A DNA stretch of 64,000 bases. Source: a virus (Duplodnaviria > Heunggongvirae > Uroviricota > Caudoviricetes). Below, piece by piece: positions 30,042 to 46,170 of this stretch (positions are counted from its first letter, which is position 1; each line of letters starts with the position of its first letter). The DNA lies in IMG/VR virus record IMGVR_UViG_2908567220_000002, positions 1-64,000 of that record, one strand, 5' to 3'. Both the position numbers and the translations under genes were made by a program. The notes under the pieces were generated by a model. It did no database searches. It was not told the origin of the DNA and was given only the letters and a program-made list of their open reading frames with translations.

Positions 30042-30116
<75 letters not shown>

Positions 30117-30119
30117 CAT

Positions 30120-30195
<76 letters not shown>

Positions 30196-30362
30196 CATTG
30201 GTTCCTCAGGTGTGGATGAGATGCCCGGATACATAAATTACCCTCCCTTGGAACCGACGAAGAATAATAATGAATTCCGCTCCTGTTTCAATACAAACAA
30301 TGTCAGGTATTTAAAACATAATTATACAATATTATAAAAATTAAAAAGTTCGCAAAAAAAAG

Positions 30363-36270: not shown

Positions 36271-36426
36271 TTACTCCTCAGGTTCGTAAGCTGTGAAGAC
36301 AGCGACCTCCGTCTGGCCGGTTCGGATTCGTACCTCGCAGAGGTCTTTCCTCGTTACCAGTGCCGTCATTATGACGGTTAAACAGATGACGATCAGGGCG
36401 ATTAACATCGCCTTTTGCTGCTTCAT
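36271..36426 (-). CDS. hokD: Hok-family type I toxin (HokD/RelF-like)
   Basis: MKQQKAMLIALIVICLTVIMTALVTRKDLCEVRIRTGQTEVAVFTAYEPEE, near-identical to HokD as recalled; the longer in-frame ORF to 36483 may be the mok-like frame. Confidence 0.8.
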   Translation of the reverse strand: MKQQKAMLIALIVICLTVIMTALVTRKDLCEVRIRTGQTEVAVFTAYEPEE

Positions 36427-36836
36427 AGCCTGCTTCTCCTTGCCTTTCGGCACGTAAGAGGCTAACCTAGATTTGCCGTTCATAGATTGAGCCTCAGATT
36501 AATGTATAAGCGTCTTGCAGGACGCATAATGTTAACTGGGGCTTTTCTCTATCTGCCTTTGGTGTTCATGCTTGAGGCAGATAGCCTCAAGCACCCGCAG
36601 CAATTTTACTTAACTCCCCTTTTCCCACAAATCGTTTTTATCCCTACTGGTAATGTTCTCCCGATGTGGGATTCCCACATTGGAACGAATTCAATCAGTT
36701 AAAGACTCATCAGAATCTCACCTTTCTAAGTGCCCACAGGTGAGGCATTGCAATAAAAATAGCAAACGTGTATAAAAGGAGGTAATGCATGTTTTTCCAG
36801 TCTTATCAATCCATTACTGAGAGTTAAGGGGGCGCC

Positions 36837-43616: not shown

Positions 43617-43763
43617 ATGAACGAAACAGAATTAAAACACGTTATCGCTCTGCTTCTGGAGGATGCAAAACGCCTCCAGCAACTGGAACCAAATGCAGGC
43701 ACTGAAGCCCGCATCTGGCTGGCATTGTACGCTATTGAGTCAGGTCGTGATGATGAAGGTTAA
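43617..43763 (+). CDS. YdfB-like small protein
   Basis: 48-aa ORF starting 1 nt after the ydfA-like stop (TAAAATG); below track threshold. Confidence 0.4.
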   Translation: MNETELKHVIALLLEDAKRLQQLEPNAGTEARIWLALYAIESGRDDEG

Positions 43764-44044
43764 GCATCATCTAAGTTTTTTACATAGCGCCCATTAGATT
43801 CGGTAACAAGAACACCGGGATTTTTCTTAACTTTTGAGGCCACTGATTCAGCAAGGTCAGCAACAGATTCTTTGTCTTCATTCTTGCTTGAATATATATA
43901 TTCGGCATTAGGAAGACGGTAGGTGTTCCCTAAAGAGGTTGTAATCGTTCTGGAGAATCCCTTTGCTTCCATTCGTTCATGAAGCTTATCGTAATCAGCG
44001 GAACTGGAATCGCGAAGTTCGATCCTGACTGTAAATTTTGCCAT
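43760..44044 (-). CDS. Hypothetical protein
   Basis: ORF 43760-44056; probable start MAKFTVRIELRD. Confidence 0.4.
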   Translation of the reverse strand: MAKFTVRIELRDSSSADYDKLHERMEAKGFSRTITTSLGNTYRLPNAEYIYSSKNEDKESVADLAESVASKVKKNPGVLVTESNGRYVKNLDDA

Positions 44045-44404
44045 TTTATCCTCCATTTAGGTTCTGGGTTAGAAATGGAGACCAATACGGGGCTACGTGT
44101 GGTCGTGCGCCGGACACGGATAAGAATCCGGCACTGACAGTTTACTGAAAGGATATTTCCCTGAAAAGTCAGGGCATAACACGAAAGCGTACGGCGAAGG
44201 CCTTCACCTATGAGGCTTGTCGTTAATTTCTTCGACCGTGCGCTTCCGGTTGTGGCACTCCGCGAAATGGCGCGGCGGTAAGTATGGCGGGGTTATTCCT
44301 TCCCCCGTTGAGGACACCGGGTTGTCAGGTTGACCATACGCTTAAGTGACAACCCCGCCATAACTCATACTGCTATAGATATATGGGGACTAACCGGAGG
44401 AAAA

Positions 44405-44626
44405 ATGATAGTTCAATGCACAGACGGGAATAATAAGCTGCTCTGGTCATACGATACCGTCAGCCAGAAACACATAATGAATATGACTTTTATAAAGGAC
44501 GGTACTCAACAAAAAATCATTACCGCCCTTGCAAGTGCATTAACTCAGGCGACAAGCCAAATTCTGCTATCTGATAACGTTAATGGAGTATCTGATATTG
44601 GCTCGATGACCGGGAGGGAGTGCTAA
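44405..44626 (+). CDS. Hypothetical protein
   Basis: ORF 44330-44626; probable start MIVQCTDG at 44405 with strong RBS GGAGG. Confidence 0.4.
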   Translation: MIVQCTDGNNKLLWSYDTVSQKHIMNMTFIKDGTQQKIITALASALTQATSQILLSDNVNGVSDIGSMTGREC

Positions 44627-44836
44627 TACAACATTCCAGTAACCCGAGTGGGGCACGGTAATATTGGCAGGGAATCGTTCATAGAAACCGCCGTAATAGG
44701 TAAAACGCCCGCCCCGCTTGAAAGCCTGGTAATTTGAATCATCCATTAATAAAACATTAATCTGGTGTGAACATTGAACCCTGACAAGGTCACCATCATT
44801 CATGTGTTCACGACTATGTATATGGGACATAAACAC
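44567..44836 (-). CDS. Hypothetical protein
   Basis: 89-aa ORF convergent with and overlapping the 44405-44626 ORF. Confidence 0.35.
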   Translation of the reverse strand: MFMSHIHSREHMNDGDLVRVQCSHQINVLLMDDSNYQAFKRGGRFTYYGGFYERFPANITVPHSGYWNVVLALPPGHRANIRYSINVIR

Positions 44837-45155
44837 TCCTTTTTACTGTGGAAAGCTAAATCATATCACGGTCTATGAAGTAAAAAGTGAATTTCGTGAT
44901 GCGGTGAATGCGGCTCAGCGCACGCAGAACAGTTAAAAACACAAGTGTTATGGGTGAATCATCCGGCGTTAATTGCTAACTGGTTAACGTCACCTGGAGG
45001 CACCAGGCACCGCATCACAAAGTTCACTTAGGTGATGAAAGGTAGAGAAAATGTTGAATGTAGCTATTGAAAACCAGAACGGGTGGAATTATAGTGCACC
45101 TGCACCTCATAAAACGGGTGCCGGGCGTGGAAACCCGATGTTCACTAACGCGCAT

Positions 45156-45178
45156 AACCGCGCTCAGGCGGTTTTTTT
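45156..45178 (+). terminator. Rho-independent terminator within the leader upstream of the rha-like gene
   Basis: Stem AACCGC/GCGGTT, loop GCTCAG, followed by T7. Confidence 0.55.
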
Positions 45179-45347
45179 ATGCGTAATGCACAGCCACATT
45201 CAGATTATGGTGGGACGTGCAGGGCAGCCGCAAGGCTGGCCGGGTTCGTTAGTGACCGGTATTTCCACCCCTGTACGTCTCACCACCCTTATGGTCGTGG
45301 AAAACCTTGGTGGTGAGTTAATCAAATTCACTAACGAGGCTGCTATC

Positions 45348-45902
45348 ATGGCTACTATCCCTACCCTTTCTCAACCTGACGTAACCATCGAAAATGGTCG
45401 CGCTGTCACTACGTCTGTTGCGATCGCCGAGTTCTTTGGCAAACGCCACGACAATGTTATTCAAAAAATAAAATTACTGGATTGCTCCCCTGAATTCACT
45501 GCCCTTAATTTTAAGGTGAGCGAATACACCGACTCAACCGGGCGCAAACTCCCTATGTACCAAATCACCAAAAACGGCTTCGTTTTCCTGGTGATGGGCT
45601 TCACGGGCAAAAAAGCCGCAGCTTTCAAGGAAGCCTACATCGCTGAATTCGATCGCATGGAGGCAGAGTTGTACCAGCTTAATACCACTACCACAGACAA
45701 AATAATTCCTGGTGATGGTCGCACTCTCGTTGTTCACTTCGACGAACGCGGCAATATCAAATTCACCGAAACCGTTCCTGACGGCGCTCTCGTCTGTACT
45801 CTGGATACTTTCCGCTTTTATCTGGAGAAGCAGGGGTGGACTCTTGTAAACAGGAGCGCAATTAAAAATATGACCGTCGAGCAGTTGCTGAGTATTAAAT
45901 AG
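45348..45902 (+). CDS. Rha-family phage regulatory protein / antirepressor
   Basis: ORF 45051-45902; probable start MATIPTLSQ at 45348 with GAGG RBS; upstream in-frame region contains a terminator so is probably non-coding. Confidence 0.65.
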   Translation: MATIPTLSQPDVTIENGRAVTTSVAIAEFFGKRHDNVIQKIKLLDCSPEFTALNFKVSEYTDSTGRKLPMYQITKNGFVFLVMGFTGKKAAAFKEAYIAEFDRMEAELYQLNTTTTDKIIPGDGRTLVVHFDERGNIKFTETVPDGALVCTLDTFRFYLEKQGWTLVNRSAIKNMTVEQLLSIK

Positions 45903-45948
45903 TTTTCTGGAATTTTCTTAATGCGACAAATTTATTAAGGAGATAATT

Positions 45949-46170
45949 ATGATTGCTCATCACTTCGGAACTGATGATATTCCTCGTCAGTGCGTGACTC
46001 CCGGTGATTATGTTATTCATAAAGGAAGAACATATATTGCTTCGGTAAACAATATAAAAAAACACCGGCTCTATATTCGTGATTTTTCCACACAACACTG
46101 TATTAATGAAACCATGATTAAAGTCTTCCTTGATCGTGATGGTTTACCTGTAAAGGCGGAGTCGTGGTGA
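45949..46170 (+). CDS. Hypothetical protein
   Basis: 73-aa ORF between the rha-like and exonuclease genes. Confidence 0.4.

Follow-up and report, generated by a model that had tools for sequence, protein, structure and literature searches.

A probable IsrK-C4 RNA immunity cassette in front of a Rha-family antirepressor gene of a lambdoid Escherichia coli prophage

We analysed the region preceding a Rha-family antirepressor gene (rha) in a 64,000-nucleotide stretch of viral DNA (IMG/VR record IMGVR_UViG_2908567220_000002, positions 1 to 64,000; hereafter the window, to which coordinates refer unless another locus is named) and identified positions 45067-45347 as an IsrK-C4 RNA immunity cassette, i.e. 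the same module as seqA/CI RNA of phage P4 and c4 (immI) of phages P1 and P7. We put the probability of this identification at about 0.9, and we are equally confident that the cassette is joined to rha within the early-left operon of an E. coli lambdoid prophage of the Rac/PPompW type. The stretch 44860-45347 (+) divides into three parts, namely an inverted-repeat element, isrK and the C4 antisense RNA, and what precedes rha is not one attenuator but a pair of RNA genes, each catalogued in its own right, together with their target sites. An initial annotation of this DNA had proposed, by analogy with P22/Gifsy-type phages, a small RNA (sRNA) or cis-regulatory RNA controlling the antirepressor; this is borne out by the IsrK-family terminator and by the presence of C4 in the part of the leader that recurs elsewhere in the window. 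The leader is of a kind already known, real but ordinary, with both IsrK and C4 catalogued. The cassette and the gene that it regulates consist of the following features:

45067..45095, + strand: sigma-70-like promoter of isrK (TTGAAA, 17-nt spacer, TATAGT), matching 10/12 consensus positions
45102..45178, + strand: IsrK-family sRNA, equivalent of the P4 seqA leader (RF01394, 65.9 bits, gathering threshold 50, E 7e-12)
45203..45290, + strand: C4 antisense RNA of the P1/P7 c4 and P4 CI type (RF01695, 80.3 bits, gathering threshold 45, E 4e-14)
45291..45347, + strand: downstream target region and rha translation initiation region, from a complementarity search
45348..45902, + strand: rha-family antirepressor-like gene, 184 aa, the regulated gene (Pfam Phage_pRha, E 3e-31)

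The two RNA genes were found in an Rfam scan of the whole 64-kb window at gathering thresholds (E-values refer to the whole window). Such a scan had been suggested in the initial annotation for the leader of rha and for a second region near the start of the window, and it returned isrK and C4 before rha and another C4 at 605-688. The isrK match exceeds its gathering threshold and is full length (model positions 1-77/77), it is accompanied by a promoter-like site and a Rho-independent terminator, and an antirepressor gene (Phage_pRha) lies downstream. No other site in 44400-46000 resembles a promoter as closely as this one, which is a consensus match only; 6 nt separate its end from the first Rfam isrK position, and transcription is predicted to start at ~45102. 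From there the order is hairpin 1, hairpin 2 with a segment termed a1 in its loop, a linker with a segment termed b1, and the terminator. This terminator had been placed about 170 bp before the start codon, and we indeed find a hairpin at 45156-45173 followed by a T-run to 45178, ending 170 nt before the ATG at 45348; 45156-45178 is the sole terminator-like site within 44400-46000 and is the same as the isrK terminator. The c4-a1b1 model (RF03163) gives a sub-threshold match at 45089-45141 (24.7 bits). IsrK itself is a Gifsy-1 sRNA that controls the antirepressor AnrP; Hfq binding and activation of the antirepressor in trans are experimental results for Gifsy-1 only (Hershko-Shalev et al. 2016, PMC4825925).

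C4 starts 24 nt past the isrK terminator and consists of a 17-bp closing stem around two hairpins. Both RF01695 matches in the window (80.3 and 58.4 bits) span model positions 1-87/87. RNAs of this type are cut from a longer transcript (by RNase P in P1 and P4) to a stable RNA of ~77 nt that represses the downstream gene. Threading the Rfam C4 structure onto 18 distinct sequences, we found 99% of the cells paired and compensatory changes, with both sides changed, in 12 of the 27 pairs; this level of covariation was reached by none of 500 shuffles, and controls in which the structure was slid along the sequences paired at only 36-45%. Two single-stranded segments of C4, a' and b', each have two complements on the same strand, one set within isrK (a1/b1) and one past C4 (a2/b2), so that the two recognition segments are flanked by targets on both sides and the downstream set lies at a ribosome-binding site, that of rha with its Shine-Dalgarno (SD) sequence:

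45127-45133, + strand: a1, GUGGAAA, in the hairpin 2 loop of isrK
45142-45150, + strand: b1, UCACUAACG, in the linker within isrK
45247-45255, + strand: b', CGUUAGUGA, in the loop of C4 hairpin 2
45262-45268, + strand: a', UUUCCAC, in the strand joining C4 hairpin 2 to the closing stem
45297-45303, + strand: a2, GUGGAAA, after C4
45309-45317, + strand: GGUGGUGAG, a repeat of the 5' strand of the C4 stem
45328-45337, + strand: b2, UCACUAACGA, overlapping the SD of rha
45336-45339, + strand: SD sequence GAGG of rha, 11 nt before the ATG

We find the 9-mer TCACTAACG at three places in the 64 kb (0.31 expected), and these are exactly b1, b' (on the opposite strand) and b2. The stem repeat GGUGGUGAG can pair with the 3' strand of C4 at 45279-45287, which would put a2 in a hairpin loop. 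Codons 1 to ~11 of rha (MATIPTLSQPD) form part of the conserved cassette.

The evidence that these complementarities matter comes from related prophages, on which the initial annotation had suggested a covariation analysis. Searching IMG/VR with Rha yielded 80 loci with 35 distinct leaders of 260 nt, to which six more distant phage loci were added. Besides the compensatory changes in the C4 stems, the a and b sets co-vary: while the scaffold positions are conserved among the leaders, the a and b segments are exchanged as sets, and a1/a'/a2 as well as b1/b'/b2 co-vary three ways across the 35 leaders and the six phage loci. We counted ~9 a-types and ~16 b-types, which are combined freely in E. 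coli and Salmonella prophages. Examples of the a sets (a1/a'/a2) are:

window: GUGGAAA/UUUCCAC/GUGGAAA
L008: UUUGCAC/GUGCAAA/UUUGCAC
L045: UUGCUAC/GUAGCAA/UUGCUAC
L080: UUGGCC/GGCCAA/UUGGCC

Predicted duplex energies show the same preference for matched partners. For b' with b2 the mean is -15.6 kcal/mol for cognate versus -6.5 kcal/mol for non-cognate pairs, and the cognate target is the best one in all 11 rows; the corresponding means are -12.7 versus -5.7 kcal/mol for b'-b1, -15.3 versus -8.6 kcal/mol for a'-a1 and -11.3 versus -6.1 kcal/mol for a'-a2. Taken together, the co-varying complementarity and the cognate energies are the hallmark of an antisense RNA that pairs in trans and whose specificity can be selected, like that known from P1/P7 heteroimmunity. 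The matched a/b specificities also amount to a ready-made collection of orthogonal antisense switches, and the specificity table could predict which co-resident prophages are heteroimmune at the level of the antirepressor. In two loci (L021, 1367-1456, and L042) a close Rha relative lies behind a different leader, the Rfam family sRNA-Xcc1 (RF02221, 67.4 bits); by eye its logic is similar, with AACAGTTAAG occurring twice, once on the SD, and CTTAACTG in between.

The window itself holds two a-types, GUGGAAA (45127 and 45297) and UUGGAAC (692), the latter belonging to the second C4 copy:

605..688, + strand: second C4 of different specificity, partly degenerate (RF01695, 58.4 bits, E 1e-8)
660-666, + strand: a' of copy 2, GUUCCAA
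692-698, + strand: a2 of copy 2, UUGGAAC

That the 3' part of the rha leader recurs here had been pointed out in the initial annotation, and we can confirm it: CGTCTCACCACCC is present at 45276-45288 and 674-686, and GGTGGTGA at 45309-45316 and 704-711. Copy 2 is ~74% identical over 85 nt to the C4 of the E24377A locus (L001), which is 100% identical to copy 1 of the window, and its a pair is of the phiP27 a-type. Over 44700-45889 the identity between E24377A and the window is 99.3%. The homology of copy 2 to isrK/C4 loci starts at 574, at the terminator T-run; apart from this T-run the isrK body is missing, and its place is taken by the 3' end of an ORF6N antirepressor gene (1-561). The downstream genes differ in family: copy 1 is followed by Phage_pRha, copy 2 by an antirepressor pseudogene that starts at ATG 747, is interrupted after 29 codons and has an N-terminus like that of the ORF6N gene 1-561. 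The sequence at the SD behind copy 2, CACUAGAGG (730-738), is a b2 of another type. Probably, copy 2 is a cassette that has decayed or recombined.

The architecture and the co-varying complementarities are observations; for the steps that would follow from them we draw on P1, P4 and Gifsy-1. By analogy with these systems, most transcripts from a constitutive promoter would end at the terminator and give IsrK, while read-through transcripts would carry C4 and be processed to a stable RNA of ~80 nt, as is done by RNase P in P1 and P4. C4 would then pair with a2/b2 and occlude ribosome binding at rha, which would probably permit Rho termination, i.e. polarity. The decoy sites in IsrK might act in two ways, in cis by holding a' and b' sequestered within the precursor and in trans by competing with a2/b2 for C4; if the decoys compete for C4 in this manner, the ratio of IsrK to C4 would therefore decide whether Rha is made.

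Several points weigh against this interpretation. In the window, the promoter activity, the read-through, the processing of C4 and the repression are all inferred. The a'-a2 duplex has just 7 bp, and the cognate target is the best one in four of five rows. For copy 2, b' matches only 6 nt downstream (GGUUUC at 648-653 with GAAACC at 725-730), and given this poor match of b' and b2 the copy may be non-functional. An icd-like open reading frame (ORF), as present in P1/P7 immI with the translation of ant coupled to it, is absent between C4 and rha, where the sole ORF in the 57-nt gap is the frame that runs from an AUG in C4 into rha. In the published model for Gifsy-1, IsrK is an activator that works through translation of a small ORF, orf45, and translational coupling, and the RNA processed from this region is not treated as a repressor; also, constitutive expression of this RNA, STnc1160, failed to relieve IsrK toxicity (PMC4825925).

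Among the alternatives, a control of the P4 type survives best, although we consider it rather unlikely: C4 would act mainly by pairing with nascent a1/b1 and a2/b2 and making transcription end prematurely, either at the terminator of isrK or at a Rho-dependent site, instead of occluding the ribosome-binding site. P4 has the same pair of isrK and C4, its immunity is CI-dependent termination through seqA and seqC (as summarised in PMC4825925), and in the window a strong terminator immediately follows a1/b1. However, b2 ends in the SD sequence GAGG, 11 nt before the ATG, in every variant, which is the geometry of a translational block, and Gifsy-1 fusions showed transcription without translation (PMC4825925, Table 1A). 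The two modes are compatible and can coexist, with a block of translation leading to Rho-dependent polarity.

Beyond the RNA genes themselves, the leader contains an open frame that calls for an explanation. The 5' strand of the C4 closing stem contains an AUG (45207) that shares its frame with the ATG of rha and is equivalent to the first start codon of Gifsy-1 orf45. The frame from this AUG to the rha ATG is free of stops in 42 of the 45 distinct leaders (the other two frames have 1-6 stops each), as well as in five of the six distant phage loci and in P4; it holds over all a/b specificity types, those of Stx (Shiga toxin) phages, phiP27 and a Salmonella phage included, and the distances in both spacing classes (-141 and -138 nt) are divisible by three. 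In 74 leaders (nine leaders were missed, that of the window among them) the variable a/b modules contained 67 stop codons, none of them in the open frame and 36 and 31 in the other two frames, the counts being non-independent. At the same time, the variable columns are spread evenly over the codon positions of the leader (28/28/32) but not over those of rha (70/46/129), third-position variation is in excess only from 45348 on, and the peptide encoded by the open frame is replaced completely where a- or b-types swap. The statistics are suggestive only, but they fit RNA-level evolution combined with selection against stops, in agreement with the ribosome transit proposed for orf45. We tentatively consider, at somewhat less than even odds, that the DNA of C4 is also a translated leader, selected for the passage of ribosomes and not for a protein. 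If true, passing ribosomes could melt C4 as well as the b2/SD structure, or could block Rho; the coupling idea for Gifsy-1 orf45 would extend to the whole P4/c4 family; the Pfam 'Ash protein family' would be a by-product of the open-frame constraint; and an N-terminally extended Rha isoform (+47 aa) would be predicted for the prophage of the window.

It is a different matter whether the region encodes a protein in its own right, i.e. whether what it really produces is the protein of a long ORF (45051-45902, 283 aa) or an 'Ash family' domain and the RNA matches arose incidentally, and this we judge highly improbable. The ORF is open and was annotated with 283 aa in E24377A by the Prokaryotic Genome Annotation Pipeline (PGAP), 45051-45347 translated in frame 0 matches Pfam PF10554 Phage_ASH (56.8 bits, E 3e-15), Stx phages are annotated with coding sequences (CDSs) of 341-383 aa across isrK/C4, and its portion between the C4 AUG and the rha ATG is the conserved open frame described above. 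Against this, the ATG at 45051 lies upstream of the predicted isrK transcription start, and the ORF contains an intrinsic terminator; the variable columns are evenly distributed over codon positions, unlike those of rha; the amino acid sequence is replaced wholesale upon a- or b-type swaps; both RNA folds show covariation; and the P4 'cI protein' CDS, which likewise matches Phage_ASH, overlies CI RNA. Despite the hidden Markov model match of 56.8 bits, we thus found no selection at the amino acid level on Phage_ASH as a protein in these leaders. The region encodes RNA and lacks a coding-type substitution pattern, and the Phage_ASH family therefore looks like a by-product of conserved RNA. A bypass of the switch by translation from further upstream (from the cII side in Stx phages, or from ATG 45051) was also considered, and we rejected it as far as the sequence ahead of the C4 AUG is concerned; in L019 and L072 the frame is interrupted upstream of C4 by a change of 1 nt in the T-run.

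In the Stx phages, all six L086-L090 differences fall at codon position 2 of the long frame and at position 3 of a 59-aa ORF in another frame, and upstream of isrK the long annotated ORFs are spurious. This 59-aa ORF (MQELNRWFRDGRGLYVH..., L086 993-1172, Stx2 phages) lies just upstream of isrK and shows variation of the synonymous type; it is probably a real gene there, hidden beneath the mis-annotated long antirepressor CDS. CDSs annotated as antirepressor, 'peptidase' or 'cI protein' run through isrK, C4 and the terminator in the window (45051-45347), L001 (6352-7206), L086 (844-1995), L089 (973-1995), L090 (854-1999) and P4 (L092, 1169-1585). These are annotation errors, by which PGAP and several phage records lengthen the Rha/antirepressor CDS by ~100-200 codons over two RNA genes and a terminator.

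The third part of the stretch lies upstream of the promoter:

44885..45029, + strand: conserved structured element, homolog of the dicF-dicB spacer of prophage Qin in E. coli K-12 (alignment, fold)

The initial annotation had noticed a long-range inverted repeat here, and it is present, with GTGATGCGGTG at 44896-44906 and CACCGCATCAC at 45008-45018 (a small offset from the positions 44887 and 45013 first given). These segments are the inner part of a longer repeat with 22-nt arms (44885-44906 and 45008-45029), which are 91% complementary and separated by 101 nt, forming a 22-bp closing stem that surrounds several hairpins. The fold of 44880-45035 has a predicted energy of -63.6 kcal/mol, compared to -39.2 +/- 3.6 kcal/mol for shuffled sequences (z = -6.7), and the consensus fold of 13 sequences is multibranched with a hypervariable central hairpin, 9 of its 45 pairs showing compensatory changes. 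Over its full length the element aligns with the K-12 sequence that extends from the DicF terminator to the start codon of dicB (NC_000913; L091 636-809). It shares with the Qin spacer the closing stem and the hairpins; it differs in that the window lacks DicF (none was found in the window by the Rfam scan) and in that the position of dicB is taken by isrK-C4-rha, and the alignment points to an insertion of the isrK-C4-rha cassette right at the beginning of dicB, replacing it. We found no published function for the dicF-dicB spacer, though it is conserved in many phages before dicB, kil and terB.

The same annotation had taken the inverted repeat and the terminator for parts of one continuous leader or attenuator (44860-45347) in which both act together. 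This did not hold up and is now very improbable, even if for most close relatives of the rha of the window the distance from the element to the downstream isrK is ~72 nt and transcripts from the early-left promoter would hold both. In the phage-database search the query split, with 44884-45029 emerging as a module independent of isrK/C4: the element occurs without isrK, C4 and rha directly before dicB (K-12), kil (POCJ13) and terB (P7), the module is also found in HannyBb and PPompW phages, and conversely isrK/C4 occur unaccompanied by it in P4 and, situated between cII and O, in Stx phages. In L019 and L020 the element is ~1 kb upstream of isrK, with a DicF gene (76.7 bits) immediately 5' of it in L019. 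Complementarity between the element and C4/isrK is limited to 9-nt matches at chance level. Moreover, the isrK promoter separates the two; the element lies upstream of this promoter and is therefore outside the isrK/C4 transcript, and it would be transcribed solely from the early-left promoter further upstream.

Other identities for the element were considered and rejected. The match to Rfam STnc100 (RF02076) is sub-threshold and partial (33.1 bits, gathering threshold 47, E 2e-5; only model positions 30-154/206), and we retain it as a distant resemblance, not as membership of STnc100/PasD; these sRNAs appear, judging from the described synteny, to be sited near Q and lysis genes (bioRxiv 10.64898/2026.05.13.724894). 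For a DicF-like sRNA or an RNase III site that matures DicF, no Rfam DicF is present in the window, and the mapped RNase III cut is elsewhere, 5' of DicF and outside the spacer (bioRxiv 10.1101/2023.04.14.536235). The 'DicB N-terminal fragment' annotated by PGAP at ~44945-45025 translates to VLWVNHPALIANWLTSPGGTRHRITKF and sits in the stretch homologous to the non-coding K-12 spacer.

Elsewhere in the prophage, the window contains a sok antitoxin RNA (RF01794, 110.4 bits, 36421-36596 on the - strand), which implies a hok/sok-type toxin-antitoxin locus, and two adjacent tRNA genes, Gly-UCC and Thr-UGU (30043-30196, - strand). A 98-aa ORF at 43760-44056 (- strand) corresponds by position to an E24377A gene annotated as a GhoS-type (type V) antitoxin, with no obvious GhoT-like ORF after it on the same strand. 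Two G-runs (GGGGGGG ... GGGGGGG) at 1441-1465, within an ORF starting at 1179, could be a frameshift or a sequencing artefact.

How does the cassette compare with systems that have been studied? In Gifsy-1, as in the window, an sRNA of the isrK family has a promoter of its own and a leaky terminator and is followed by an antirepressor gene; the stretch of the window that is homologous to orf45 scores 80 bits as C4. Hershko-Shalev et al. (PMC4825925) found that IsrK transcripts in part read through into orf45-anrP, that orf45's nucleotide sequence is conserved but its amino acid sequence is not, that an RNA of ~80 nt, STnc1160, is processed from the read-through, that IsrK activates AnrP translation in trans, and, by mutational analysis, that G28/G31 of IsrK pair with C159/C162 of orf45. 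We would map this helix onto the a1-a' pairing of the window. Judged by its sequence, the orf45 stretch is C4; the text of PMC4825925 treats it as a small ORF and mentions neither RNase P nor phage P1 nor Rfam. Our analysis suggests that the mutational data on orf45 should be reread with the C4 fold in mind. One difference is that in Gifsy-1 the ORF opened by the AUG of the C4 stem stops on the start codon of anrP (AUGA), whereas that of the window runs in frame into rha without a stop.

In the immunity region of P4 (seqA - CI RNA - seqC - kil), the Rfam scan gives an isrK hit and then a C4 hit, as in the window. As these are the same two hits in the same order, isrK corresponds to the P4 seqA leader and C4 to the P4 CI RNA. 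The c4 and c4-a1b1 motifs were defined by Weinberg et al. (2010, PMC2864571), and Barquist et al. (2013, PMC3632133) explicitly equated IsrK/C4 with P4 seqA/CI RNA and noted IsrK-C4 in lambdoid Salmonella prophages. In addition to the order of the elements, P4 and the window have in common the SD sequence GAGGCTGC(C/T)ATCATGGCTAC and the first codons: the first ORF after CI RNA (65 aa, MATTLTPSHPE) resembles the start of Rha (MATIPTLSQPD) over ~11 codons in the same SD/ATG context (window 45336-45380 versus L092 1340-1385, minus strand), while the remainders of the two proteins are unrelated. In both, the frame from the C4 AUG is open to the first ORF and Pfam Phage_ASH matches its translation. 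The two differ in that P4 is a satellite phage and not a lambdoid prophage, in that its 65-aa ORF is followed by the replication operon in place of a Rha antirepressor, and in their a and b specificities. Given the IsrK and C4 matches, the equivalence with P4 and the work on Gifsy-1, the window therefore belongs to a known and experimentally studied kind. As a discovery it is minor, since IsrK and C4 are curated Rfam families and both the equivalence with P4 seqA/CI and the occurrence in lambdoid prophages had been published.

A functional parallel is the immI region of P1/P7, which in the account of Citron and Schuster (1990), as relayed in PMC2864571 and PMC12197685, comprises the c4 antisense RNA, a1/b1, a2/b2, icd and ant. 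Both are built around an antisense RNA processed from the transcript that carries its own target, with an antirepressor under its control; both have two recognition segments with target sets on both flanks, the downstream set at a ribosome-binding site; and as specificity variants define heteroimmunity in P1/P7, so the window holds two specificities. The window differs in that its antirepressor belongs to the Rha family and is not P1 Ant, and in that its upstream targets lie within a terminated sRNA, IsrK, the c4-a1b1 model reaching 24.7 bits only. The window functions like immI, yet its gene content is not that of the immI operon.

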